Below are positions 5,419-64,000 of a DNA stretch of 64,000 bases, one piece after another. The notes under the pieces are model-generated. The model saw only the letters and a program-made list of their open reading frames with translations, was not told where the DNA came from and ran no database searches. Source of the DNA: Deltaproteobacteria bacterium (GTDB lineage Bacteria; Desulfobacterota; Binatia; Binatales; Binataceae); the NCBI GenBank assembly GCA_021794015.1, contig JAJYRQ010000007.1, positions 9,755 through 73,754 of the forward strand, written 5' to 3'. The stretch's first letter is position 1, and every line of letters starts with the position of its first letter. The position numbers were made by a program, and so were the translations under genes.

Positions 5419-6786
5419 TTAGTAGGTAAGCTGCGTCAGCAGAAAGGAGAGCGAGTCGCTGGCCGCCTGGACGGCGCGGCCGGCCGCCTGGAGGGTCTGC
5501 TGGTACTGAATGAGCTCGGTGAGCTGTTGGTTGACCGAGACGCCGGTGATCGACCCCGCCAGCGTGTTGAGCGAGTCGAGCGAGGCCTGCGCCTGCTGCT
5601 GGCCGCTCTGGGCGTTGGCGATCTGCGAGCCGAAATTGCTGGCAATGTCGGCATAGGACTGGCTCGGCGTGCTGCTCGGAAAAGAGCTGTCGAGCCCGGT
5701 TGCGCCGGCCAGCGCCGCAATCGCGCTGGCGTTCGAGCCGTCGCCCGGCACGCCTGCGGCGGTTGAAGCGGCCGGCAGGTTCTGCACGGTGATTGCCGGG
5801 TTGAGCGCGATCGGGCCGTTGCCGCCGGGAATCAAAAACAGGTCGTTGCCGGTCGAGCCGTCCAGCCCGTAGCCGAGCGCGCTCTGGCTGTTGATCGCCG
5901 TTGCCACCGAAGCGGTGAAGTTGTCGACCGCGCTGCGCGTTGCCAGGATGTCGGAAGCGCCGGTAAAAAGGCCGCCGATCGTGCCGCCCAGCGAGGTGCT
6001 CGGCACCGGCACGGTGCCGTTGGCCAGCGAGACCTCGAGCCCAACGCCTACCGTGGGGCCGCCGATGGTCCCGGTAAGCGAAAGCGTAAGCGGCGTGGTT
6101 CCCGAGACTAGGGGCACACCCGCCACCGCAACGTTGCCGCTGGCGTCGCCGGTCGCGCCAATCAACCCGGCCAGTTGGCTGACCAGAGCGTTGCGCTGAT
6201 CGACCAGGGCCGCCGTGCTGCCGCCGTTGGACCCGGCGGCGGTAATCTGGGCGTTGAGCGTGGCGACCTGTTGACTGAGGCTGTTGACCTGTTGCACCAG
6301 CGGTGCGAGTTGGGTTAGCGCCGTGTCGGCCGTCTGGTTCAGGTTGCCGGAAAGCTGCTGGGCCAGGCTAGCGAACTGGCCCGCCGCGGCGATTACCGCC
6401 TGGCGCGTGGCCGGGTCGGTGGGTGAAGCGGAAAGGTTGCTGAAGGCGTTGAACAGATTCTGCAGGCTTTGTCCAAGATCGGTGCCTGAGCCGGGCTCCA
6501 GATAGACTTGTGCCGCCTGGGTCGTTTGCGTCAGCGCCGTGTTGAACGCCTGCACGCCGCTGAGCTGGTTGATATCGGCGGTAAGGAATGGCGCCTGCGC
6601 GGCTTGGGCGGTTCCGACCTCGACGCCGACGGAATTGCCCTGCGGGCCGGCCAGGGCGCTGAGCGGCACCGACTCGACCGCATAGTTGGGGTTGTCGGCG
6701 TTGCTGATGTTGGCTGCGGTAGTGGCGATCTCGGCCTGCGCCGCCTCGATTCCGCTAAGGCCTATTGCCAGAAGATTCACGCTCAT
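5419..6786 (-). CDS. flgK: flagellar hook-associated protein 1 FlgK
   Basis: N-terminal 'LLAIGLSGIEAAQAEIATTAANISNADNPNY' rod/hook motif and C-terminal '...LTELIQYQQTLQAAGRAVQAASDSLSFLL'. Confidence 0.85.
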   Translation of the reverse strand: MSVNLLAIGLSGIEAAQAEIATTAANISNADNPNYAVESVPLSALAGPQGNSVGVEVGTAQAAQAPFLTADINQLSGVQAFNTALTQTTQAAQVYLEPGSGTDLGQSLQNLFNAFSNLSASPTDPATRQAVIAAAGQFASLAQQLSGNLNQTADTALTQLAPLVQQVNSLSQQVATLNAQITAAGSNGGSTAALVDQRNALVSQLAGLIGATGDASGNVAVAGVPLVSGTTPLTLSLTGTIGGPTVGVGLEVSLANGTVPVPSTSLGGTIGGLFTGASDILATRSAVDNFTASVATAINSQSALGYGLDGSTGNDLFLIPGGNGPIALNPAITVQNLPAASTAAGVPGDGSNASAIAALAGATGLDSSFPSSTPSQSYADIASNFGSQIANAQSGQQQAQASLDSLNTLAGSITGVSVNQQLTELIQYQQTLQAAGRAVQAASDSLSFLLTQLTY

Positions 6787-7027
6787 CGCGTAATCCGCTC
6801 CTCAATAAGGCGATCCGCAGCGCGACCGCCTGTTGCAACCGGGCAATGGTCGTCGTCAGCGCGCCGAGCTCGCGTGCCAGGCGCGGGGCCTCGCGCGCCC
6901 GCTCGGCGGGGTCGGCAGTTTCGAGCGATGCCTTAAGCGCGGCAAGTTCCTCCGCCACGCTCGACAGTTCGACCTTGATGCCGAGCCGCGCCGCCATCAG
7001 GGCCGGCCTTATCTGCTCCAGGCTCAT
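6755..7027 (-). CDS. flgN: FlgN-like flagellar chaperone (small, putative)
   Basis: 90-aa helical protein between flgM and flgK that overlaps the flgK start. Called from position only, so confidence is low. Confidence 0.35.
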   Translation of the reverse strand: MSLEQIRPALMAARLGIKVELSSVAEELAALKASLETADPAERAREAPRLARELGALTTTIARLQQAVALRIALLRSGLRDERESSGNRP

Positions 7028-7362
7028 CGCGTGACGGGGCCCAGCGCCTTTGCCACTGCGGCGCCGACCGCCAGCGGGTCTGGCTGGTAGCTCCCGCTGT
7101 TAACTGCCTGTTTTATGGCGCCCACGACCGCAGGGCGAAAGGCCGGCACCGCCTTGAGCGCTTGGCTGAGCCGAGCGGCCATTTGCCCCTGCGACGAAAG
7201 CGTCGTCTGGTCGACGGGTGGCGCGCTTTCGGAAGGTCCGTTGCCGCCGGCTGGTTGCGCGGGCTGCGCGGCGGTCGCGGAGGCCGGCTTTTTGCTTGCG
7301 GCTGCCGGCACGGGGCGTAAGTCGAGCGGCAAATTATTGGCGCCGTTGATGGTGTTGGCCAT
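7024..7362 (-). CDS. flgM: anti-sigma-28 factor FlgM
   Basis: The C-terminal 'RPAVVGAIKQAVNSGSYQPDPLAVGAAVAKAL' matches the FlgM sigma-28-binding helix pattern (IK.AI..G.Y.VD...IA), and the N-terminal half is disordered. Confidence 0.6.
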   Translation of the reverse strand: MANTINGANNLPLDLRPVPAAASKKPASATAAQPAQPAGGNGPSESAPPVDQTTLSSQGQMAARLSQALKAVPAFRPAVVGAIKQAVNSGSYQPDPLAVGAAVAKALGPVTR

Positions 7363-7922: not shown

Positions 7923-9197
7923 TTAACGAATGATTAACTGCCCGTGGAGCGCGCCGGCGGCGCGCAGACCTTCGAAAATCGCGATCACGTCGCCGGGCTC
8001 CGTCCCCACGGCATTGAGCGTGTCGGCGATCTGCTCGACGCTGGCGGCCTCGGGTGTCATGAAAAATTGGCCGCGATGCTGCTTGGCCCGGATGCGGCCG
8101 GTTTTCATCGCCACGGTAGTGCCGGCGCTGAGCGCTCCCGGCTGCGAGACGGTAAGCTGCGGCTGGATGGTGATCGTGAGGTTGCCGTGGGTGATGGCCG
8201 CCTTGCCGACGGTGACTTCGCCGCCGATAACTACGGTGCCGGTGCGCTCGTCGACCACGACGCGGTCGGACTCAACCGTCTCGACGGCCATCGTGTGCAG
8301 CTTGGCGGCAAAGGCCACCGGGGTCATCCAGGGTGGGAGATCGACGGTTAGCGTGCCCGGGTCGTCGACGCGGACCCGCGCGCTGGTCAGTTGCGTTCCG
8401 ATCTCCTGCGCCACGCGCATCACCAGCGTCGCATTGGGTTGGTCGAGGTCGAGTTGCAGTTGGCGCAGGTTGCTGAAGCTGCTGGCGACCTCGCGCTCGA
8501 CCGTAACGCCGTTGGGTATCTGACCGGCGGTCTGGAAATTCTTGCGTGCGGCGGCGCCGCCCATCGCTCCCGCAAAATACCCTTCGATGGTGATCGGTCC
8601 CTCGGCCAGCGCGTAGATTTTTCCGTCGGCGCCGCGCAGCGGAGTCATGATTAGCGTCCCGCCCTGCAGCGATCGGGCGTCGCCCATCGAGGAGACCAGC
8701 GCGTCGATGCGCGAGCCGCGCCGGGCAAAGGGCGGCAAGTCGGCGGTTACCATTACCGCGGCCAGGTTGCGCGTTTGGATGTCCAGCGGGTTGAGCGCCG
8801 AAGGCAGCGTCACGCCGGCGTGAGCGAGCAGGTTTATCAGGAGCTGAATCGAGAACATGGTTTCCTGCGTGTCGCCGGTATTCTGCAGCCCGGCGACCAT
8901 CCCCATACCCACCAGGTGATTCACCCGCAGGCCGTGAACGTGGACGAGCGTGGTCAGGGAGACCAGGCCGCTGCCGTTTCCGCGCCGGTAGCCGAGCATC
9001 GCGCCGCCGGGAGGCAACAGCCTGGGCGAGGGCGGCATTAGCTGGGGCAGGAGCATTGCCTGCGCGCCGGCCGGCTGCGCGTAAGCGGCGGGCGCCCGGC
9101 AGGCAAGCAGCGCCAGCACGACGGCGGCAAAGATCAGAGTGGCGGCCAGAGCCCCGACTTCGCGGTTGCGCTTTGCGAGAGAAGGCCGGCCGGGCAA
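7923..9197 (-). CDS. flgI: flagellar P-ring protein FlgI
   Basis: C-terminal 'GDVIAIFEGLRAAGALHGQLIIR' and an internal 'GGTLIMTPLRGADGKIYALAEGPI'. The proposed TTG start gives the signal peptide 'PGRPSLAKRNREVGALAATLIFAAVVLALLA'. The ORF-track start at 9284 is probably too far upstream. Confidence 0.8.
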   Translation of the reverse strand: MPGRPSLAKRNREVGALAATLIFAAVVLALLACRAPAAYAQPAGAQAMLLPQLMPPSPRLLPPGGAMLGYRRGNGSGLVSLTTLVHVHGLRVNHLVGMGMVAGLQNTGDTQETMFSIQLLINLLAHAGVTLPSALNPLDIQTRNLAAVMVTADLPPFARRGSRIDALVSSMGDARSLQGGTLIMTPLRGADGKIYALAEGPITIEGYFAGAMGGAAARKNFQTAGQIPNGVTVEREVASSFSNLRQLQLDLDQPNATLVMRVAQEIGTQLTSARVRVDDPGTLTVDLPPWMTPVAFAAKLHTMAVETVESDRVVVDERTGTVVIGGEVTVGKAAITHGNLTITIQPQLTVSQPGALSAGTTVAMKTGRIRAKQHRGQFFMTPEAASVEQIADTLNAVGTEPGDVIAIFEGLRAAGALHGQLIIR

Positions 9198-9336
9198 CGG
9201 TAGGCCGCGCGACCGGGCTCTTGCTCCGGGTAAGCGAGGGCTAAGCGGTACTTGTCTGCCGGTTGTTGTAGGGTGCACCCTCAATTTTCACTGCGCGCCT
9301 GTGCGCGCCGTCTCCGCAGTTTCTTTGCCATCGCCG

Positions 9337-10284
9337 CTAGAACGGCCAGAGCCAGTCGAAGAGGCGGCTGCCGGCGCCGACTCCCTGCTTGTCGCGGATC
9401 AGCCCCTTGCCGGCCAGGCTTACGTGCAGGTTGGCGACCTTGTACGACGGCACGTTGTTGTTCGAGTCCAGGTCTTCGATCCGGACGATGCCGCTTACCC
9501 GGACAGTGTCGGTTTCGCCGTTGATGTGAACCTCGCGTTCGCCCTTAACCACCAGGTCGCCGGCGGGCGTCATGGCGACCACCAGGGCGCTTATGTTGGC
9601 GGTGAAGGTGTCGCCGGCGGTCATGTTGCCCTGGCCGGCGGTGTTGTTCTGGGATGACGTGTTGATGAGGCTGCCCAGGTTGAGCAGCGGATTGTGAGCC
9701 GCCAGTGACTCGGTTCCGGTGAGCAAATTGGGCGCCGCGCTTTGCAGCGCGCGCTTGTCGGCGAGCGTAGTCTGCGCCGAGCTGGCCCCGCTTATCGACT
9801 CGCTCACTTTGACGGTGATGAGATCGCCGACTGCGCGGGCTTTGTAGTCGGCGGCTAGATCAACGTCGTTCTCGGCCAGTGCTATGGTGCCGTCGGCTTG
9901 GGCGGCGCCTTGTGCCGTGCCAGGGTAGGCCAGCTCGGCCGGCGCCATGAGCATCGCCCCGGCGCCTGGGCCCTCCTTGGGCGGGTCGATTCGAGAAGGA
10001 TTGGCCGGCGCCGGCTGCGGCAATGCCGCGGCGCCGCTTGCGCTGCCGGCATTGGCAACTTGCACCGGGCCGCCCGCGGCCGGGCTCGTCGGCTGCGCCG
10101 CAACAGGCGGATCGGGACTGTCGGCCGGCGCGTTGGATCGCTCGGAACGGCGGCTGCCGGAGAACAGAGGCGGTGCCAGTTGGGCCACCGTCGGCAGATA
10201 ACCCAGAAAAGGCAGCGCGGCGCATCCCGCGGTCGTTGCCGCCAGGACAAGCAGCGCGGCTGCGGTGCCCAGGGTCCTGCTCAT
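9337..10284 (-). CDS. flgH: flagellar L-ring lipoprotein FlgH (with a long low-complexity insertion)
   Basis: Lipobox 'AATTAGCA' and C-terminal 'GETDTVRVSGIVRIEDLDSNNNVPSYKVANLHVSLAGKG' FlgH core. Confidence 0.8.
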   Translation of the reverse strand: MSRTLGTAAALLVLAATTAGCAALPFLGYLPTVAQLAPPLFSGSRRSERSNAPADSPDPPVAAQPTSPAAGGPVQVANAGSASGAAALPQPAPANPSRIDPPKEGPGAGAMLMAPAELAYPGTAQGAAQADGTIALAENDVDLAADYKARAVGDLITVKVSESISGASSAQTTLADKRALQSAAPNLLTGTESLAAHNPLLNLGSLINTSSQNNTAGQGNMTAGDTFTANISALVVAMTPAGDLVVKGEREVHINGETDTVRVSGIVRIEDLDSNNNVPSYKVANLHVSLAGKGLIRDKQGVGAGSRLFDWLWPF

Positions 10285-56011: not shown

Positions 56012-57037
56012 ATGGCACCGTTGAAGAATCGGCAGTGGCTGCTGGCGGCGCGGCCGCAGGGCATGGTCAAGGAAAGCGATTTCCGCTGGCACGAGACGAC
56101 CGTCGACGCGCCGGCCGAGGGGCAGCTATTGGTGCGCAACCTGGCGCTCTCCTTCGATCCGACGCAGCGCGGCTGGATGTCGCGCGACACTTACGTGCCG
56201 GCCGTCCCGCTCGGGCAGGTGATGCGCGCCGGGGCCGTGGCGCAGGTGGTCGAATCGCGGCTGGAGGGCTTCGCCCCCGGCGACCTGGTACAGGGCGTGT
56301 TCGGCTGGGAAGACTATACGCGGACCGACGGCCGCGGGCGCTTCGGCTTGCGCAAGCTGGCGCCGGGAACCGATCCGCTGCTGGCGCTCTCGCTGCTTGG
56401 CTTAACCGGCCTGACCGCCTACTTCGGCACGCTCGAGATCGGGCGGCCCAGGCCGGGAGAGAGCTTCGTGGTCTCAGGCGCGGCGGGCGCCACCGGCTCG
56501 GTGGCCGGCATGATTGCCAAGCTCAAGGGATGCCGGGTTGTCGGGATCGCCGGCGGGCAGGCCAAGTGCGACTGGCTTATTAGCGAAGCGGGCTTCGATC
56601 TGGCCATCGACTACAAGCGCGAGGACGTCGGCCAGGCGCTTTCGCGCCACTGCCCGGATGGAATCAACGTCTATTTCGACAATGTCGGCGGCGCCATTCT
56701 CGATCTCGCGCTGGAGCGGCTGGCGCCTGCGGCGCGGGTGGTGCTGTGCGGGGCGATTTCGCAGTACAACGAGCCGGCCGGCCCGGCGGCGCGTCCGCCG
56801 CGCAACTACTTTTACTTGATTTGGCGCGGCGCGCGGATGGAGGGTTTTCTCGTCACTCAGTTTGCCGCACGTTTTCCCGAGGCGCTGGCCGATCTTTCCG
56901 CCTGGCACAGCCAGGGCCGGCTCAAGAACAGGATCGACCTGCAGCACGGGCTGGAAAACGCCCCGCGCACCTTGATTCGGCTCTTTACCGGCGACAACTT
57001 CGGCAAGCAGCTCCTTAAGCTTGCCGACCCGCGCTAG
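56012..57037 (+). CDS. NADP-dependent oxidoreductase (MDR family, CurA/YncB-like)
   Basis: 'FVVSGAAGATGSVAGMIAKLKGCRVVGIAG' and 'INVYFDNVGG'. Confidence 0.8.
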   Translation: MAPLKNRQWLLAARPQGMVKESDFRWHETTVDAPAEGQLLVRNLALSFDPTQRGWMSRDTYVPAVPLGQVMRAGAVAQVVESRLEGFAPGDLVQGVFGWEDYTRTDGRGRFGLRKLAPGTDPLLALSLLGLTGLTAYFGTLEIGRPRPGESFVVSGAAGATGSVAGMIAKLKGCRVVGIAGGQAKCDWLISEAGFDLAIDYKREDVGQALSRHCPDGINVYFDNVGGAILDLALERLAPAARVVLCGAISQYNEPAGPAARPPRNYFYLIWRGARMEGFLVTQFAARFPEALADLSAWHSQGRLKNRIDLQHGLENAPRTLIRLFTGDNFGKQLLKLADPR

Positions 57038-57123
57038 CCGGCGCGCTTGCTTGAGAGCGCCGGCCGGATCGTCCATGCCCGCGGATCGTCGTCGCGCTGC
57101 GCGCTCGGGCCGTGCCGCCAGGG

Positions 57124-58119
57124 TCAAATCCGAATCCGCTCAACCTCGTCGAGTGCGACCGCGTCGCGGGTGCGGTCGTAGAGCTTGGTGGTGCGCGGCG
57201 ACTCGTGCGCGGCGATCTGCTGGGCGTGCTCCAGCGTACCGCCGTTTTGCAGGTAGGTGGTGATGCCGGTTGCGCGGAAGGTGTGGCAGCAAGTCGAGTA
57301 GGGCAGCCCGGCCTTTAATGCCCGCCGCTTGATCATTTGCAGGACGTCGATCCGTGTAAGCGGGTTGGCCGCCAGCCGTCCTCCCTTGCGCACCGTCCGG
57401 AACAGCGGCCCCTTGCGCTCGGCCTTAAGCCCGGCTGCGGCGATCCAGGCGTCGATCGCTTCCTCCAGCTTATGATGGCAGGGCACCTCGTGGCGCTTGC
57501 CGCCCTTCTCATGGAGCCGCACCCAGGCGCGCCGGCCCTGGCTGAAGTAGTCCTCGACCCGCATCGCCACGACCGCTCCGACCCGGGCAAAGCTGTAGAC
57601 CATGGTTGCGATCAGCGCCCGGTCGCGAACGCCGATTAACGTATCGGTTTCAATTGAATCGATCAGCCGTCGGGTCTCCTCGGCGCTTAAAACCGGCGTC
57701 TTGCCCCGCTTGATAACGTATTTCGGCCCGCGCACCGAGCCGGCCGGATTGGAACGCAGGATGCCGCCGGTGACCAGGTAGTCAAAAAGCCGGCGAATCG
57801 CCGCCAGGTGTTGCTTGACGGTTGGCTTGGCCGCCCTTTGCTGAAGTCTTTCGACGTAGGCGGCCACCACGGTCGGCCCGATATCGTCCAGACTGAAGCG
57901 GCGCCGATCGCAGAAATCAAAGAACTGCCTTACCGCGCGGGCGTAGGCCAGGCGCGTGTTGCGGTTGCGAATCGCGGCGGCGAAAAACTCGATGAACCGC
58001 CGGCTTGCCTGCTCGCCGCCGGCACGGATCGCCGCCGGCAGGGCCTCCATTCCCGCCCGGACAAGGGCCGGCGGCGGCGCAACCTCGTCCGTCAGAAGAA
58101 TCGGCGCTTTGCCTGACAT
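57124..58119 (-). CDS. tyrosine-type site-specific recombinase/integrase
   Basis: N-terminal SAM-like domain and a C-terminal catalytic box 'HTFRATGITTYLQNGGTLEHAQQIAAHESPRTTKLYDRT' with the R...HxxR...Y signature. Confidence 0.85.
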   Translation of the reverse strand: MSGKAPILLTDEVAPPPALVRAGMEALPAAIRAGGEQASRRFIEFFAAAIRNRNTRLAYARAVRQFFDFCDRRRFSLDDIGPTVVAAYVERLQQRAAKPTVKQHLAAIRRLFDYLVTGGILRSNPAGSVRGPKYVIKRGKTPVLSAEETRRLIDSIETDTLIGVRDRALIATMVYSFARVGAVVAMRVEDYFSQGRRAWVRLHEKGGKRHEVPCHHKLEEAIDAWIAAAGLKAERKGPLFRTVRKGGRLAANPLTRIDVLQMIKRRALKAGLPYSTCCHTFRATGITTYLQNGGTLEHAQQIAAHESPRTTKLYDRTRDAVALDEVERIRI

Positions 58120-58143
58120 TCCGACTTCCAGCCATTCTGGCAG

Positions 58144-58506
58144 ATGATGGAAGCGTTGGCCAACAAGGTGGGCCGGCGCGCAACGGTCGTGTTGCCGGCG
58201 AAGCTGCGCCGCCGCCTCGGTATCGAAGAGGGGTCCTTCGTGGTCACCGAAGAGCGCGAGGATGGGATACTGATCCGCCCGGCTGCCGTGCTACCGGTCG
58301 AAGTCTATACAGCCGAGCGCAGGGCTGAGTCCCTGCTTAACAACGCGCTCGATGCTGAGGATTACCCGCGTGCACGCGCCGAAGTGAAGCGGCTGGGGCT
58401 GGATCCCGACCGCACCAAGCACCGCCGGCCCCAGGCGGCCAAGCCGCGAAGCCGGCAAAATCAAGCCGGCGCTGCGGGTAGGGCAGGGCGCCGGCGCCCT
58501 GGGTAA
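58144..58506 (+). CDS. AbrB/MazE/SpoVT-family antitoxin-like protein (orphan)
   Basis: 'RRATVVLPAKLRRRLGIEEGSFVVTEEREDGILIRP' is a swapped-hairpin AbrB fold. No cognate toxin ORF is adjacent. Confidence 0.5.
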   Translation: MMEALANKVGRRATVVLPAKLRRRLGIEEGSFVVTEEREDGILIRPAAVLPVEVYTAERRAESLLNNALDAEDYPRARAEVKRLGLDPDRTKHRRPQAAKPRSRQNQAGAAGRAGRRRPG

Positions 58507-58678
58507 TCTTCCGAGGCAGGTAGACGCGACAAGCAATGGAAGAAGGGGAAGGCCGCCGGAGAACGGCCGGCCTCGCGCAGATTCCATAAAAGCGCTTGCG
58601 TCCATCAATCCTGGCGTCCGGAAAGCCGGAAAATCGGTCGTGAACGACTTACATCCAGCCACCACTTGTTGCGTACTA

Positions 58679-58703
58679 CATGCTGTGATACATCTTAAGC
58701 ATG
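58679..58703 (+). promoter_or_regulatory. inverted repeat CATGCT-N13-AGCATG spanning the start of the RHH antitoxin gene, a candidate autoregulatory operator
   Basis: Perfect 6-bp arms at 58679-58684 and 58698-58703. The -35-like TTGCGT lies at 58669-58674. Confidence 0.3.
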
Positions 58704-58997
58704 AGCGCGTTGAGCATCAGAGTCGATCCGGAAACCGCAGCTTTTCTTGAGTGCGCGGCGCGCCAAACCGGTCGCACCAAGTCCGAACTCGTTCGCCAAG
58801 CGCTCGAGGCCCTGCGTAACCAGGAGGCTCAGCCGGTCATGCGGCCGGCCGCGGCGATGACTGGCCTGATCGGATGTTGGGACAGCGGCGGCATGCGGCT
58901 TTCCGAGCGCACGGGTGCGCGCTTCGCCCAGATGCTACAAAAGCAAAGACATGAGCACCGTACTGGTCGACGCCGGCCCGCTCGTCGCGCTGATTGA
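58701..58997 (+). CDS. ribbon-helix-helix (CopG-like) antitoxin
   Basis: 'LSIRVDPETAAFLECAARQTGRTKSELVRQALEAL'. Confidence 0.6.
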   Translation: MSALSIRVDPETAAFLECAARQTGRTKSELVRQALEALRNQEAQPVMRPAAAMTGLIGCWDSGGMRLSERTGARFAQMLQKQRHEHRTGRRRPARRAD

Positions 58998-59361
58998 TCG
59001 CAGCGATCCCTATCACGACGCCTGTCGAGAAGCTCTGAGGGAGATCGACGACCCGCTCGGCACCGTGTGGCCCGCTTTTACGGAAGCGATGTATTTGCTC
59101 AGATCATCCGCGCAGGCGCAGCGTGCGTTGTGGGACATGATCAATGTGGGCGCGGTGCGCTTCATGCCTCTCGGGAGCGACGACTGTCCCCGCATCCGTG
59201 AGCTAATGTGGAAATATCGCGATTTGCCGATGGACCTCGCGGACGCCGCTTTGGTCCGGTTGGCTGAACGTGAACGCCTGCGGCGCATTTTCACCGTGGA
59301 CCGTCAAGACTTCGAGGTTTACAGGCCGCATCGGCTCGGCCGTTTCGAGATTATTCCTTGA
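58951..59361 (+). CDS. vapC: PIN-domain toxin VapC
   Basis: 'MSTVLVDAGPLVALIDRSDPYH...DLADAALVRLAERERLRRIFTVDRQDF' PIN acidic residues. The internal ATG at 58951 is preferred to the ORF-track start at 58915. Confidence 0.7.
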   Translation: MSTVLVDAGPLVALIDRSDPYHDACREALREIDDPLGTVWPAFTEAMYLLRSSAQAQRALWDMINVGAVRFMPLGSDDCPRIRELMWKYRDLPMDLADAALVRLAERERLRRIFTVDRQDFEVYRPHRLGRFEIIP

Positions 59362-59402
59362 GCTTTCCCCGCCCGGGACAGGCGCTCAGCACACCGGCGC
59401 CT

Positions 59403-59882
59403 CGCTTTCTCCTGGACCGGATATTTCTCGACGCCAACGTACTGTCTTCGGCCGCATACCTGAAGAATTCCCGGCTGGGCCGGCTCTGACGGCTTGAAGA
59501 TGCCGAGCTTCTGAGCTCGGCCTTCGCCGTCGAGCAAGCGCGACGCAACCTGGCCTTGGACCGTCGCGCGGCGCTGGCCCGCCTTGAACGGCTGACCCTT
59601 GCGCTGAAACTGCTCAACCCGCCGCGCGACCTCAAGCTGCCGGCAGGCGTCCGGCTTGACTTCAACGATCAGCCGATCCTGCTGGCCGCGATCCACGGCA
59701 AGGCTGATTTTCTGCTGACCGGCGACGGCCGCCACTTCGGCCATCTTTTCGGCAAGCGCATCGAGGGCGCGATGGTGTTGCGGCCGGCGCAGTACTTCCA
59801 GCGCCGGGGGCGCCGCCGCTTTCCCGCCCGGAACCACCGCCTCGCCGACCATGGGCAAGCATTGGACTTAGTCCGAGGCTAA
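59403..59882 (+). pseudogene. PIN-domain toxin-like gene interrupted by an in-frame TGA at 59487-59489
   Basis: Frame 0 reads 'LDRIFLDANVLSSAAYLKNSRLGRL*RLEDAELLSSAF...DFNDQPILLAAIHGKADFLLTGDGRHFGHL', so the N- and C-terminal PIN motifs are separated by a single TGA. There is no ATG at the 5' end. Confidence 0.45.
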
Positions 59883-59886
59883 GTCT

Positions 59887-60135
59887 ATGATCAGCGACAT
59901 GAGCCGAGCGGTCAACGTACACGAAGCCAAAACGCGCTTCTCGAAGCTGCTCAAGCGCGTCGAACTCGGCGAAGAGGTGGTAATTGCCAAAGCCGGCCGC
60001 CCGGTGGCGCGCCTGGTTCCGTTTGTACTTGCCGGAGCCTTGCGGCGGCCCGGTACCGCCAAAGGTCGAATCACGGTTGCGCCTGACTTCGACGCGCCGC
60101 TCTCCGAAGAACTCGCAAGCGCCTTCCTCGGGTGA
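59887..60135 (+). CDS. Phd/YefM-family antitoxin (VapB-type)
   Basis: 'RAVNVHEAKTRFSKLLKRVELGEEVVIAKAGRPVARLVPF'. Its stop overlaps the vapC GTG as GTGA. Confidence 0.7.
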   Translation: MISDMSRAVNVHEAKTRFSKLLKRVELGEEVVIAKAGRPVARLVPFVLAGALRRPGTAKGRITVAPDFDAPLSEELASAFLG

Positions 60136-60518
60136 AGCTTCTGCTCGACACGCACGCCTTTCTTTGGTGGGTTAGCGACAATCCCAAGCTCTCGCCTCGC
60201 GCGCGCCGGCTAATCGCCGCCGGCACAAACCAAGTCTTCTTCAGCGCCGCCAGCGCCTGGGAAATAGCAATCAATACGGGCCTGGGCCGGCTAACAGTGG
60301 CCGGCGACCTGCAAGAGTTTATGCTCGAGCAGCTAAGGCTCAACGGCTTCGAGGTGCTGCCAATCCACCTCAAGCATGCGCTCTTAACCCACCGGCTGCC
60401 GCCACACCACAGCGACCCGTTTGACCGGATGCTGGTTGCCCAAGCGATGGCTGAGGGCTTGGCGATCCTGAGCGCCGATCCGGCGCTTGGCCGCTACCGG
60501 GTGCGCGTGGTCTGGTGA
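60132..60518 (+). CDS. vapC: PIN-domain toxin VapC
   Basis: 'KLLLDTHAFLWW...SAASAWEIAIN...SDPFDRMLVAQAMAEGLAILSADPAL'. Confidence 0.8.
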   Translation: MKLLLDTHAFLWWVSDNPKLSPRARRLIAAGTNQVFFSAASAWEIAINTGLGRLTVAGDLQEFMLEQLRLNGFEVLPIHLKHALLTHRLPPHHSDPFDRMLVAQAMAEGLAILSADPALGRYRVRVVW

Positions 60519-60519
60519 G

Positions 60520-61620
60520 CGGGCGGATCGCACCACCATCGAGGAGCAAAGCGCGGGCTTCGCCAGGCAGCTTCCAGCGCAGAGGCCGGCAATCGACTCA
60601 ACCACCGCTTCCGCGCCGCAGGCGGCGCCGTCATTATTGCTAATTGCATATTGCAGTGACAGAGTCGTCCTGAGCCGGCTCGTTTGGTGCGTGATTCTCG
60701 GCTGCAGTTGCCACGCGGAGAATCGTAACGTTTCGCCCGCGCTGCGGCAGCATAACCCGGGATTCCCCTCGGCAGGGACACGCGTCGCGCATCCCCGCAT
60801 TGCACTCCCGCTGGCCGGGCAAGCTGTCGTGCGGCGAGCACCGCGCGGGGGAGTGACAGCAGTGGGGCGCGCACCTCCTTTTCCTGATTCCTCTCCCCCG
60901 CCGGGGGAGAGGATCAAGGAGAGGGGGGCGCACCGCGCAAGCGGAGTCGAAGGCAGAAGGGGGGCGCACCCAGAGGCTCGAGGTGGCGCCAGCGGCCCCC
61001 CTCACCCTTCCCTCTCCCCCCAAGGGGAGAGGGAGACAAGAACGAGCACCGCGCGCGGGAATGACGGCAGTGGGGCGCGCGGCTCCTACTTGTCACCCCC
61101 GCGCTCCCTTCTCCCTGTCACCCTGAGCGAAGCGAAGGGCCTACGCGAAGCGATTTGTCCTCCAGCGGCGTGGCGAACCCACCTGCCTGCGCCGACGCGC
61201 CAGGCAGGTCGCTGCGCGTAGATTCTTCGCTCCGCAGACCGCGCTCAGAATGACATCCGCGGTCGACGGTCACCGGTGAGGCTGCCTCCAGCACGAGCAG
61301 GGCTGCCCTGCAGCGAGCGCCGCGCGGAAATGACGGCAGTGGGGCGTCCGGCTGCTGCTTGTCACCCCCGCGCGTGGCCGTTGCATCGCGGCAGGGACAC
61401 GCGTCGCGCATCCCCTTTTCCTGATTCCTCTCCCCCGCCGGGGGAGAGGATCAAGGAGAGGGGGGACGCTCCGCGCAAGCGCAGTCGAAGGAAGAGGGGG
61501 GACGCACCGCGCGCGAGGGGTCCCGGGCCCACGGCGCCACGCCATCGCGTGCCGCCTGGCTCGTGTGCCGACCAGCGCGGCGTTACGCTCCCGCTGGCCG
61601 TGCCGCACCCGAGGTGCTCG
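60520..61620. repeat. non-coding block of mosaic direct repeats and GC-rich hairpins
   Basis: A 26-nt exact direct repeat (GGCAGGGACACGCGTCGCGCATCCCC) lies at 60771-60796 and 61390-61415. A 52-nt exact repeat lies at 60877-60928 and 61414-61465 and extends to about 95 nt at roughly 90% identity. Three copies of a CGCGCGG..ATGAC.GCAGTGGGGCG unit lie at 60843, 61053 and 61320. Hairpins CTCTCCCCC-gcc-GGGGGAGAG and CCCTCTCCCC-caa-GGGGAGAGGG are present. Confidence 0.7.
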
Positions 61621-61751
61621 ACCAGGTGATCGAAGGACTCAACGAGAACATCGGGCGAGCCAAGCCGCTGTTCGGGCCTGATTTATCCATCATAAAGGAC
61701 ATTATGATAGGAAAAAAAGGAAGGCGCGCCGAGTCCTAAACGATCGCGCGA

Positions 61752-63569
61752 TTAGACTCCCCACAGCCGTTCCCGACAGAACGCTTCGGCCTGAGAGAAT
61801 CTGCGTATCGATCCGCCAAAGAGGCCTGCCCGGAGTGCCGGCCATTCCTCTTTCGCCTCTGCGGCCTCTCGGACGATCTCAACCCATGTCTCCTTAGCTT
61901 GCCACGCGAAGCGCCCTGGTAGCGTTATCGGCCAGTCAGGGGCAACATCCCTATGGACGAGCGTGAGGAAGCACTCGAAGCGGTGGAAGCATGCGTCATA
62001 TTGAGCGTCCTCAGGCAGCAGGTCCTGAAATGATTCACGGAGTGCGGCGTGAATGTGCTGGCTGAATGGTGTCGGCTTGGAATGGAGAACACCCTTAACC
62101 CCTGGCAGGTTGACCGCCAAGCGCTCATCGAGAATCATTCCCGTATTCACTAGCCGGATCAATGGAAGTTCGCCCGCTACGGAGCGCACCTTAATTTGCG
62201 GGGAAAGCAACGCCGCGAGCGCCTCGTACCCTGGCGCCGCCACCGCTGCAACTCCTCCAGCGTATAAAACGAGCAATGCCGGGTACCACCTGAAGTTGAA
62301 CCACTCCCCATCGCCAAAATGCGTTACCGGAGGGTTCGCGATCCGCCTGAGGCACCCAGCCCAATATGCCGCATGCTTCGGCGCACCCCAACGGCATCCC
62401 GTCAGAACAATGGCGCGAAGACGCCCGGTGAGCGACTCGTACTCTTTAAGCCGACCGGCAATTTCCGGAACCCTAAACGGCACGCCCAGAACGGGAAACC
62501 GAGCGTCGGTAAGCTTGGTGTGAACCGTCTCGGTTTCGCCAATGACAAGCTTGTGAAGTTCGATCCTATGTATGTCGTCGACCAGATATTTCTGCAACCG
62601 ATCGATGACATCAGCGGTCGCGGGCACTTTGGGCGCTTCGGTGTTCGGAAGCTCGACTAGCTCTGTGCTCTCTTCCGGCGCAATCGCGCGTACTAACTCC
62701 GCTATGACGTATTCGAGACCCCTTGCAGAGGATACAGCCACCCGGTCTGCCAATGTTGGCGAGTAGGCTCTTATCTCATTTGGGCCAATTTCATGCCATA
62801 CCGGCAGTAAGACTTTCGCCCCGCCAACTTCGCGCGCAACCAATCCGTCCAATTCCTTTTGAGGCCAGTTCTTCTGCAAAAAACTTGGGCTAATTACCAC
62901 CACGCCGAACTTGGAGCGTGCCAAACCCCGATCAATTGACTGGCGCAAGCTGTCTCCTACCCTAAGTGTGGCTTCATCGAACCACACCCTGAGCCCGCGC
63001 TCCTGTAGCCCTTTAGCCAGCGGACGCACAAAAGCCTCCTTGTCTTCGCTCGCGTGGCTCACGAACACCTCCCACTCTGCGTAGGGTGTCCCTTGGCCTC
63101 GCGGAATGACAGGCTCTTTGGGCAGAGCCTCCCAGAGAATATCACTGGGTTCACAGTCGACGGCTCCGGCAAGGTTCTTCACCTTTTCGACGCCGTCGGC
63201 GAGCGAACTTACCGCTCCCTCCGGCCAACCATCTTGGGCTGTTTTCGCACACTCCTGTTGACGCCTCTGCGTCACAAACATCAGCGCAGCCTTCACATAT
63301 CGCAGGTTCCCTACCGAGATCCCCCTGACGACGATCCCCTGGGCGTTCGCCTCGCCTAGTTGTTGCTCCCCAAATTCGAGTAGCTGGGTCAGGTCAGCGA
63401 CTTCGTGTTCATATGGTGGGTATGTCGCACCATGTTCGATCGCGCGCTGGTTCCACGCCTTGAGCTCGTCGCAAAGAAGACGCAGCCCTTCCTGGACAAC
63501 TTGGTAACGCATGCGCGAAAGCCTGAAATCTCCGGTAAGCGTCGAGTCAAACTCATAGTGATAGCCCAT
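61752..63569 (-). CDS. 605-aa protein with a central TIR domain flanked by unassigned N-terminal (about 160 aa) and C-terminal (about 300 aa) regions
   Basis: 'EVFVSHASEDKEAFVRPLAKGLQERGLRVWFDEATLRVGDSLRQSIDRGLARSKFGVVVISPSFLQKNWPQKELDGLVAR...VLLPVWH' matches a bacterial TIR pattern: the FISHASEDK-type betaA strand, the VW.D...L.VGDSL loop and the W..KEL helix with a conserved Glu. GAGGTGA Shine-Dalgarno 7 nt before the ATG. The gene is lower in GC than its neighbours. Confidence 0.8.
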   Translation of the reverse strand: MGYHYEFDSTLTGDFRLSRMRYQVVQEGLRLLCDELKAWNQRAIEHGATYPPYEHEVADLTQLLEFGEQQLGEANAQGIVVRGISVGNLRYVKAALMFVTQRRQQECAKTAQDGWPEGAVSSLADGVEKVKNLAGAVDCEPSDILWEALPKEPVIPRGQGTPYAEWEVFVSHASEDKEAFVRPLAKGLQERGLRVWFDEATLRVGDSLRQSIDRGLARSKFGVVVISPSFLQKNWPQKELDGLVAREVGGAKVLLPVWHEIGPNEIRAYSPTLADRVAVSSARGLEYVIAELVRAIAPEESTELVELPNTEAPKVPATADVIDRLQKYLVDDIHRIELHKLVIGETETVHTKLTDARFPVLGVPFRVPEIAGRLKEYESLTGRLRAIVLTGCRWGAPKHAAYWAGCLRRIANPPVTHFGDGEWFNFRWYPALLVLYAGGVAAVAAPGYEALAALLSPQIKVRSVAGELPLIRLVNTGMILDERLAVNLPGVKGVLHSKPTPFSQHIHAALRESFQDLLPEDAQYDACFHRFECFLTLVHRDVAPDWPITLPGRFAWQAKETWVEIVREAAEAKEEWPALRAGLFGGSIRRFSQAEAFCRERLWGV

Positions 63570-63658
63570 CCTGCGTCACCTCGACTGGCATAAGTAAACT
63601 GTTTCTCTGCTGCTTCCGAGCGTGAGCGGTGCAATCGACTTACGGCTTACCGGTTTTC

Positions 63659-63964
63659 CTACGCTGCACGTAGGCGAACGCGCCGGTTCCCAAAGCTAGC
63701 GACGACTTCGATCTCGCCTCCGAGAGCGGCCACGTACCGCTGCAATGTGGACAGTCGGTAGTCTGTCCGGCTTTCGAGCCGCGATATTTCCGACTGCGCC
63801 TTCCTCAGGGCTTCCGCCAGCTCCTCCTGCGTCTTTCCGGCAGCCTCGCGCAATTCCCTGAGGTCCATTTCGAGCAGTTGATCCGCTACGGCGCGGTCGA
63901 TCTCTTTGAGCTTCTTGGGCGAAAACTTCCGTGCCCGGACGTCGCGCCACGGCTTGGTCCTCAT
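63659..63964 (-). CDS. XRE-family HTH protein, HigA-type antitoxin-like
   Basis: 'WRDVRARKFSPKKLKEIDRAVADQLLEMDLRELREAAGKTQEELAEALRKAQSEISRLESRTDYRLSTLQRYVAALGGEIEV' is a HigA-like HTH. Its ATG overlaps a TGA of an upstream ORF as ATGA. Confidence 0.7.
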   Translation of the reverse strand: MRTKPWRDVRARKFSPKKLKEIDRAVADQLLEMDLRELREAAGKTQEELAEALRKAQSEISRLESRTDYRLSTLQRYVAALGGEIEVVASFGNRRVRLRAA

Positions 63965-64000
63965 TTTCTCTTCTCCTCTCTTGCCAGATCGGCCAAGTAG
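63961..64000 (-). CDS. 3' end of an upstream minus-strand ORF running off the window (possible HigB/RelE-type toxin partner)
   Basis: The frame is open from the window edge ('...YLADLAREEKRK*') and ends in an ATGA overlap with the XRE start. Its identity cannot be determined from 13 codons. Confidence 0.25.
   Translation of the reverse strand, partial: YLADLAREEKRK

Follow-up and report, generated by a model that had tools for sequence, protein, structure and literature searches.

A gene near the end of the 64,000-nucleotide stretch analysed here (contig JAJYRQ010000007.1 of a Deltaproteobacteria bacterium; this whole stretch is called the window) encodes a protein of 605 amino acids (aa) made up of an N-terminal domain (N-domain), a central TIR domain and a C-terminal domain (C-domain). 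We consider the chances slightly better than even that the protein is a single-gene abortive-infection system, in which the TIR acts as an NAD+-cleaving enzyme (NADase) and the C-domain as its sensor or regulator. The main argument comes from two converging sets of domain swaps. Because the tails vary behind the unit of N-domain and TIR (N+TIR), and mostly killing enzymes vary in front of the C-domain, N+TIR would be the effector half of the protein and the C-domain its input or regulatory half. The window protein is the intersection of these two modular families. Below, numbers starting with P denote related proteins and numbers starting with L denote contigs or loci.

The open reading frame (ORF) was found on the minus strand, at exactly the coordinates given in a preliminary description of this DNA. 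Its first codon is backed by a family-wide N-terminus, M-x-Y-x-Y-x-F-D, with Y3 invariant; as this N-terminus is common to all relatives, the start codon was taken to be right. The AlphaFold2 model of the whole protein was built on 82 sequences and had a mean predicted local distance difference test (pLDDT) score of 83. In this model three domains were folded separately, with disordered linkers between them at residues 151-164 and 299-316, in agreement with the three segments that had been recognised from the letters. The gene and its parts are as follows.

61752-63569, minus strand: TIR gene ORF, 605 aa and stop codon (61752-61754)
63120..63569, minus strand: N-domain, residues 1-150, a strand and two helices, occurring twice in the AlphaFold2 model
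63078..63119, minus strand: linker 1, residues 151-164, predicted disordered (pLDDT <50)
62676..63077, minus strand: TIR domain, residues 165-298, AbTIR/TcpB/PdTIR type
62622..62675, minus strand: linker 2, residues 299-316, predicted disordered (pLDDT <50)
61755..62621, minus strand: C-domain, residues 317-605, almost all-helical, PDC-S65 type, putative sensor or regulatory module

The TIR had been presented as sandwiched, unlike the terminal TIRs of other bacterial proteins. Its central position was borne out, but the arrangement is not unusual in this clade: among the 54 nearest relatives with only the TIR in common, 25 have their TIR flanked by 100 aa or more at both ends. Both flanks had also been called unassignable. 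This is right for the N-domain, for which no family was found, but not for the C-terminal flank: residues 309-597 match positions 295-581 of the 592 in the PADLOC model PDLC05061 (PDC-S65) with an E-value of 8e-42. It is in Pfam, NCBIfam, PHROGs and the PDB only that the flanks go without assignment.

The first of the two families is defined by the N-domain. Its modelled elements (E, strand; H, helix) are E11-18, H19-45, H54-71, E78-85, H86-112 and H117-136, and residues Y3, G13, W39, P52, S85, Y91, A95, W115, P116 and L145 are invariant. When 5.8 billion proteins were searched with a profile of it, all matches were either N+TIR proteins or short fragments; the N-domain is therefore confined to this TIR subfamily, whose clusters at 90% identity number about 60-75. 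Against PDB sequences a profile of 27 N-domain sequences gave a best E-value of 0.32, from a chance coiled-coil match. Only scattered single-member matches were obtained when the same 27 members were scanned singly with Pfam, and the N-domain of the window protein matched no family in PHROGs. The N+TIR unit (about 60 clusters) is followed by at least 19 different tails of 50-355 aa, mutually unrelated at BLAST level. When the proteins with these tails were scanned with PADLOC they were recognised through the TIR only, save for one partial PDC-S50 match. The full architecture of N-domain, TIR and C-domain was found in only seven clusters, at 59-99% identity; several contigs carry an intact copy of the 99%-identical P0001. 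At a guess, the N-domain may be an accessory peculiar to this TIR subfamily, serving self-association or as a second regulatory element.

The second family is much larger. An exhaustive profile search with the C-domain against 1.84 billion representatives gave 3,701 clusters at 50% identity, 1,423 of them with E <= 1e-30, and the domain was always C-terminal. In species-representative genomes, scanned with a 6-sequence alignment, the family was present in more than 15 phyla, including the archaeal Methanothrix. Modelled alone, the C-domain reached a pLDDT of 91.8 and a predicted template modelling score (pTM) of 0.92, and no fold relatives were found for it in the PDB or among viral folds. A 17-sequence profile gave only a low-complexity match against the PDB, the 17 members gave nothing consistent in Pfam, and PHROGs had no match to the C-domain. 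A match to the Uup coiled coil (E 0.003) was rejected as a relative because of its low complexity. Neither Pfam nor NCBIfam has a model for the family. To see what stands in front of the C-domain, 80 members with N-terminal extensions were scanned with Pfam, and the following partners were counted.

SIR2_2: 31 of 80
TIR_2: 8 of 80 (also TIR, ThsB_TIR and DUF4062)
Caspase: 7 of 80 (also CHAT)
PilZ: 7 of 80
Protein kinase: 3 of 80
SEFIR, alpha/beta-hydrolase/DUF676 and HAD: a few each of 80

The SIR2 protein P0174 (Pfam SIR2_2) matches PDC-S65 at positions 16-590, and as it covers the profile throughout, PDC-S65 proper consists of a SIR2 and the C-domain. The window protein has the same C-terminal helical domain and matches the second half of that profile only, leaving the SIR2 half (positions 1-294) unmatched, because N-domain and TIR take the place of the SIR2. 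A TIR joined to the C-domain without the N-domain was found in P0063, P0065 and Lentzea proteins of about 460 aa. The kinase partner resembles the validated PD-T4-6 and the SIR2 partner resembles the Argonaute-associated SIR2. The PilZ fusions P0165, P0192, P0198, P0269 and P0278 carry RxxxR near residue 18 and N[IL]SEGG near residue 43; with these canonical binding motifs intact, the sequences suggest that some family members are controlled by cyclic di-GMP (c-di-GMP).

The surroundings of the C-domain genes also point to immunity. A type I restriction-modification (RM) subunit gene was located at most three ORFs from the C-domain gene in 11 of 64 genomic loci. These RM-adjoining SIR2-C-domain loci are L006, L008, L020, L026, L029, L030, L036, L045, L050, L054 and L069, and in L006 the gene order, all on one strand, is HsdM-HsdS-gene-HsdR. 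For every neighbour cluster, Pfam confirmed one representative as HsdR, HsdM or HsdS. RM proximity independently reproduces 'guilt by embedding', the criterion by which the authors of PADLOC nominated PDCs (10.1101/2024.01.29.577857) and which underlies the candidacy of PDC-S65. The embedding study cites PrrC, an anticodon nuclease, as occurring nearly always inside type I RM systems (10.1101/2024.01.29.577857). C-domain relatives likewise lie inside type I RM operons, near hsdM, hsdS and hsdR genes, but they have no sequence relationship to PrrC, and there are no RM genes near the window gene. That the C-domain guards RM is only an idea. In seven archaeal loci of Methanothrix / Methanocrinis (L007, L011, L012, L021, L025, L058 and L061) the SIR2-C-domain gene was located about 140 bp downstream of the CTP synthase gene (pyrG), and in four of these seven an AAA_21/AbiEii-like ATPase gene came next after it. 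The synteny with pyrG may only reflect the close kinship of the genomes.

The TIR domain itself could be assigned to a class. Pfam TIR_2 matched residues 168-277 with an E-value of 1.2e-21 (77.8 bits, cut-off 28) and Pfam TIR scored 38.9 bits against a gathering score of 21.3, so that the TIR fold proposed for residues of about 165-300 is confirmed. The domain is 57% identical to the TIR domain of AbTIR over 129 residues, and the nearest solved TIRs are those of the AbTIR/TcpB/PdTIR class, with an E-value of 1e-41 for TcpB/BtpA. The preliminary description had used BtpA/TcpB-type TIRs as a contrast to the window protein; this did not hold, as AbTIR, TcpB and PdTIR are exactly its closest solved relatives. 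The Glu of NADase-competent TIRs, which had been pointed out earlier, is indeed present: E239, the Glu of 'WPQKELDG', aligns with the catalytic E208 of AbTIR. The key positions are the following.

62853..62855, minus strand: E239 codon, predicted catalytic Glu (= AbTIR E208), invariant in 57/57 family members
62865..62867, minus strand: W235 codon, alpha-C Trp (= AbTIR W204), invariant in 57/57
62943..62957, minus strand: BB-loop G205-D206-S207-L208-R209 (= AbTIR G174-R178), required for TIR-TIR assembly and for activity

In AbTIR, E208 is essential and E208A is inactive, W204 is needed for cyclisation of the product to 2' cyclic ADP-ribose (2'cADPR), and G174, S176, R178 and Y207 are required for the BB-loop filament, in which the active site forms between two TIRs (10.1101/2022.05.07.491051). 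Positions at which mutation abolishes or changes the activity of AbTIR were matched here by E239, W235, G205, S207, R209, K233, W258 and S174, most of them invariant among 57 relatives; of the assembly set, the first three residues are kept as G205, S207 and R209, and Y207 alone differs. Judged by its sequence, the TIR would be able to act as an NADase of the AbTIR type that depends on assembly.

AbTIR, TcpB/BtpA (Brucella) and PdTIR (Paracoccus) have the same catalytic Glu, alpha-C Trp, BB-loop and NAD-contacting residues as the window protein, and likewise a helical region of about 130-165 aa before the TIR. AbTIR of Acinetobacter baumannii, with 269 aa, a coiled coil at 27-118 and the TIR at 134-267 (10.1101/2022.05.07.491051), ends with its TIR, whereas the window protein of 605 aa continues for about 300 aa more. 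The window N-domain, in turn, has no sequence similarity to any solved chain. Work on these three proteins has treated them as virulence factors or as enzymes in isolation, and not as sensors. The window protein contains an AbTIR-class TIR yet is a full member of no named family, and a class long discussed as a virulence factor is seen here built into island-borne modular proteins of conflict type. The place of TcpB/BtpA among the nearest solved TIRs would speak for a virulence factor of Tcp type, comparable to BtpA/TcpB or TcpC and delivered into eukaryotic cells. Against this, the gene has no secretion context, its product has flanking domains from conflict-type families of prokaryotes, and the relatives all come from environmental metagenomes and metagenome-assembled genomes (MAGs); we give this role hardly any credence. 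Another explanation is that the enzyme removes the nicotinamide from NAD-capped RNA (deNADding) or regulates NAD metabolism in some other way, and is not an immune effector. PMC10937652 describes such an in vitro activity on NAD-capped RNA for AbTIR-type TIRs, to which the window TIR is closely related by its identity to AbTIR. We still find this very improbable, as the gene is foreign in composition, patchily distributed and island-borne, and as swapping of effectors and sensors is typical of conflict systems. Two phage protein families in PHROGs, both of unknown function, were matched by the TIR (residues 164-296): phrog_15646 with 293 positions and phrog_9211 with 268, each with a C-terminal TIR as in AbTIR; phages or prophages therefore also carry AbTIR-type proteins. 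Neither the N-domain nor the C-domain module was found in a pattern scan of IMG/VR viral contigs.

The proposed logic of the window protein is known from other systems. ThsA (SIR2-SLOG), DSR2, TIR-SAVED and TIR-STING all have an N-terminal NAD+-consuming domain, the oligomerisation or activation of which is governed by a C-terminal input domain, and the window protein would join NADase and C-terminal sensor in the same way. Fusion of a NADase TIR with a sensor is an established theme in prokaryotic immunity, and this gene adds no new principle to it. The C-domain, however, is not a SLOG, SAVED, STING or HEAT-like DSR2 sensor, as judged by the lack of PADLOC, Pfam or structural matches. With regard to the TIR-SAVED and TIR-STING effectors of CBASS type, only the TIR part of the SAVED-TIR model was matched, no Pfam sensor was detected in the flanks, and no gene for a signal-generating enzyme lies near the window gene. 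The retron-type TIR reverse transcriptase NF042941 was matched in its TIR part only (93.5 bits, cut-off 600). The window protein is thus without the partners or domains by which Thoeris, CBASS and retron-TIR systems are defined. In PDC-S66 and the ThsB1 models the TIR lies similarly far from the N-terminus as in the window protein, which matches positions 147-276 of 282 in the former (E 5e-59, remainder unmatched) and 166-295 of 303 in the latter (E 6e-35). In both, the N-terminal 145-165 positions are unmatched and the proteins stop at the TIR.

The ThsB1 match raises the alternative of a Thoeris-like signal generator, in which a ThsB-like TIR makes a cyclic ADP-ribose (cADPR) isomer upon infection and so switches on an effector whose gene lies elsewhere in the genome. 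With W235 conserved the product may plausibly be cyclic, and a small TIR_2 protein is encoded directly upstream of one orthologue (L003). We nevertheless think it improbable. The ThsB1 profile is covered in its TIR only, Pfam ThsB_TIR was unmatched, and the NCBIfam Thoeris model (ThcB4) scored 23.7 against a cut-off of 220. The strong activator of ThsA is 3'cADPR and not the 2'cADPR of AbTIR-type enzymes (10.1101/2022.05.07.491051), and no ThsA-like gene (SIR2/SLOG/Macro) was present in the island that carries the window gene or adjoining the gene in four orthologue contexts. On the latter ground Thoeris proper was rejected.

No partner gene was conserved among the orthologue loci, and for this reason the protein probably acts alone. 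The 71%-identical orthologue in L003 is adjoined by integrase fragments and the small TIR_2 protein; at 8775-9871 of this locus, just upstream and on the same strand, are genes for a 157-aa unknown protein and the 208-aa TIR_2 protein, which is weakly ThcB4-like (E 3e-7). This second TIR could work with the orthologue in that genome. The orthologue in L005 has a SIR2-STAND-TPR protein and IS66 as neighbours, and that in L070 has Schlafen/AlbA_2, caspase, Fic and an integrase. The gene in L074, which lies on an integrative element, encodes an N+TIR unit followed by another tail. Altogether, the settings are of a mobile or immune kind, and integrases were located near family genes in L001, L003, L070 and L074.

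The gene is horizontally acquired and compositionally foreign. It had been described as less GC-rich than its surroundings, and the figures agree: its GC content is 0.577 compared to 0.667 for the window, and GC at third codon positions (GC3) is 0.625 compared to 0.80-0.85 in adjoining genes. The preliminary description had gone on to call it a horizontally acquired defence gene. Acquisition is supported by the foreign composition and by an island of about 8.6 kb around the gene, while defence is the best reading that domain logic and context would suggest. A scan for promoters and terminators at the gene gave signals no better than chance, and no Rfam matches were found at 57000-64000 of the window.

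The analysis shows where the domains begin and end, the class of the TIR, the conservation of its catalytic and assembly residues, the domain swaps, the absence of a conserved partner gene and the horizontal acquisition. We infer NADase activity, its product, autoinhibition, sensing through the C-domain and an antiviral phenotype, which could be connected as follows. In the resting state the flanking domains would hold the TIRs out of the head-to-tail assembly through the BB-loop. An infection-dependent cue, sensed through the C-domain, would let the protein oligomerise, and the N-domain may supply the self-association for which AbTIR has its coiled coil. The assembled TIRs would then cleave NAD+ by means of E239, probably yielding 2'cADPR as well as ADP-ribose (ADPR), as the cyclisation residue W235 is present. 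Loss of NAD+ would arrest the infected cell and thereby abort the infection. The window protein would be convenient for probing the C-domain, because it is small and self-contained and because E239A offers a clear catalytic-dead control.

It is possible, although we place it clearly below even, that the C-domain is in general an unrecognised pan-prokaryotic module for sensing infection or guarding RM, which can be joined to killing or signalling domains of at least seven classes, and that the window protein is a natural chimera between it and the N+TIR family. If true, this would define a new fold for a sensor and a new, large group of single-gene immune systems, with both portable halves open to study in one polypeptide. 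In any case a very large uncurated family is brought into view, and its partners and its RM embedding argue for an immune role.

Several observations weigh against an abortive-infection NADase regulated by its C-domain. Y207, essential in AbTIR, is K238 here and K or R across the family. Among full-length orthologues the N-domain diverges fastest: it is 50-65% identical, where the TIR reaches 72-81% and the C-domain 64-82%. Conservation of the C-domain across phyla is strong (R409, Y429, P430, G439, E532, G552 and G582 are invariant), which suggests a fixed ligand, partner or activity more than a role in recognising variable phage proteins. As PilZ is itself an input domain, its pairing with the C-domain fits poorly with a sensor and makes the function of the C-domain less obvious than that word implies. 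Apparently stand-alone C-domain ORFs occur in L036 (305 aa), L043 and L065 (276 aa each), and many further matches are of 270-340 aa. The 145 PDCs, PDC-S65 and PDC-S66 among them, are stated by their authors to be untested (10.1101/2024.01.29.577857). Finally, the window gene sits among toxin-antitoxin modules and not among recognised defence systems: when ten other proteins of the island, among them the MazE-like and the two PIN proteins of the toxin-antitoxin cluster, were scanned with PADLOC, as the preliminary description had proposed, no system was matched, apart from a partial NsnC-like match of the Gp49 toxin (to the NsnC C-terminus, E 4e-9).

The PilZ fusions, the stand-alone ORFs and the cross-phylum conservation make an output role of the C-domain the main rival. 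It would then be an output or targeting module with a conserved activity or a fixed cellular target of its own, the N-terminal TIR, SIR2, caspase, kinase and PilZ domains being alternative inputs or co-effectors, and the TIR of the window protein would either regulate the C-domain or add another activity to it. The c-di-GMP motifs (RxxxR...N[IL]SEGG) retained in the PilZ-C-domain proteins are consistent with this, and so are the invariant polar residues R409, E532 and Y429, which together with near-invariant motifs extend across bacteria and archaea. Most partners, however, are complete and autonomous killing enzymes, which would need a regulator and not a second effector. Many of the short C-domain matches may also be metagenomic fragments, and most members in genomic loci carry about 270-320 aa before the C-domain, the size of a SIR2. 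We regard an output role as unlikely, and retain the C-domain as the input or regulatory half.

The island could be followed on contig L001 (NCBI GCA_027403005.1), which is 99.6% identical to the window and runs beyond its end. The low-GC island of about 8.6 kb extends from an Xer-like recombinase to a HigB/HTH pair and has a GC content of 0.56-0.65 compared to 0.65-0.71 outside; its lowest-GC core is Gp49-XRE-TIR. Neither direct repeats of an attachment site nor a tRNA were found at the island ends. It contains at least five type II toxin-antitoxin-like modules (MazE-like, RHH+PIN, PIN_3, Phd+VapC, HigB+HTH and Gp49+XRE), and toxin-antitoxin stretches lie at 6528-7200 and 11484-13857 of L001. 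The integrase, toxin-antitoxin modules, repeat block and XRE gene that had been listed nearby are all present. The features are given below.

57124..58119, minus strand: Xer-like tyrosine recombinase, island edge (Pfam Phage_integrase E 2e-20)
58144..60518, plus strand: toxin-antitoxin cluster: MazE-like; RHH + PIN; PIN_3; Phd + PIN/VapC
60821..61587, no strand: GC-rich palindromic repeat block, 767 bp, GC 0.71, absent from L001
63659..63964, minus strand: XRE/HTH_3 protein, 101 aa, HigA-type antitoxin (Pfam HTH_3 E 1e-9)
63961..64000, minus strand: 3' end of the Gp49/HigB-type toxin gene, last 40 nt inside the window, mapped from L001

Such a dense packing of type II toxin-antitoxin modules (MazE, RHH/PIN, Phd/VapC, HigB/HTH and Gp49/XRE) beside a recombinase, in an island whose ten scanned proteins lack PADLOC defence matches beyond the partial NsnC-like one, would also be compatible with the gene being an addiction or stabilisation element of the island, or a selfish toxin, with the TIR restrained in cis by the flanking domains. 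The orthologues, however, are not linked to toxin-antitoxin clusters, and members of the C-domain family lie within RM operons and are joined to the classical set of immune effectors. We hold this to be quite improbable, and because the boundary between toxin-antitoxin and abortive infection is blurred, it overlaps with the favoured abortive-infection NADase. An integron cassette was rejected, since the recombinase is Xer-like and the NCBIfam integron-integrase model gave 46.7 against a cut-off of 265.

The XRE gene had been put forward as a possible partner of the TIR gene. It is paired with an upstream Gp49 toxin gene in both L001 and L002, and is absent beside the orthologues of 59-71% identity; a role as dedicated regulator of the TIR gene was rejected on these grounds. 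In L001 the Gp49/HigB-type toxin is whole (8471-8824, 117 aa, PF05973), the pair spans 8471-9126, and the two genes overlap by 4 nt, which makes the XRE protein a HigA-type antitoxin and not a dedicated regulator.

The repeat block had been counted as part of the context of the gene. It is present in the window, but its 767 bp are absent from L001; it is strain-specific and not part of the TIR system. It contains two identical 48-nt palindromes (60879-60926 and 61416-61463), 537 bp apart and with no copy elsewhere in the window, and other direct repeats as well. Its break-points fall in a repeat, 60790-60820 resembling 61573-61603, and the block could therefore be a true insertion or deletion or a repeat collapsed in MAG assembly. 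Compared to L001, the window has a 1-bp indel at position 58497, by which the MazE-like ORF is cut from 201 aa to 120 aa.

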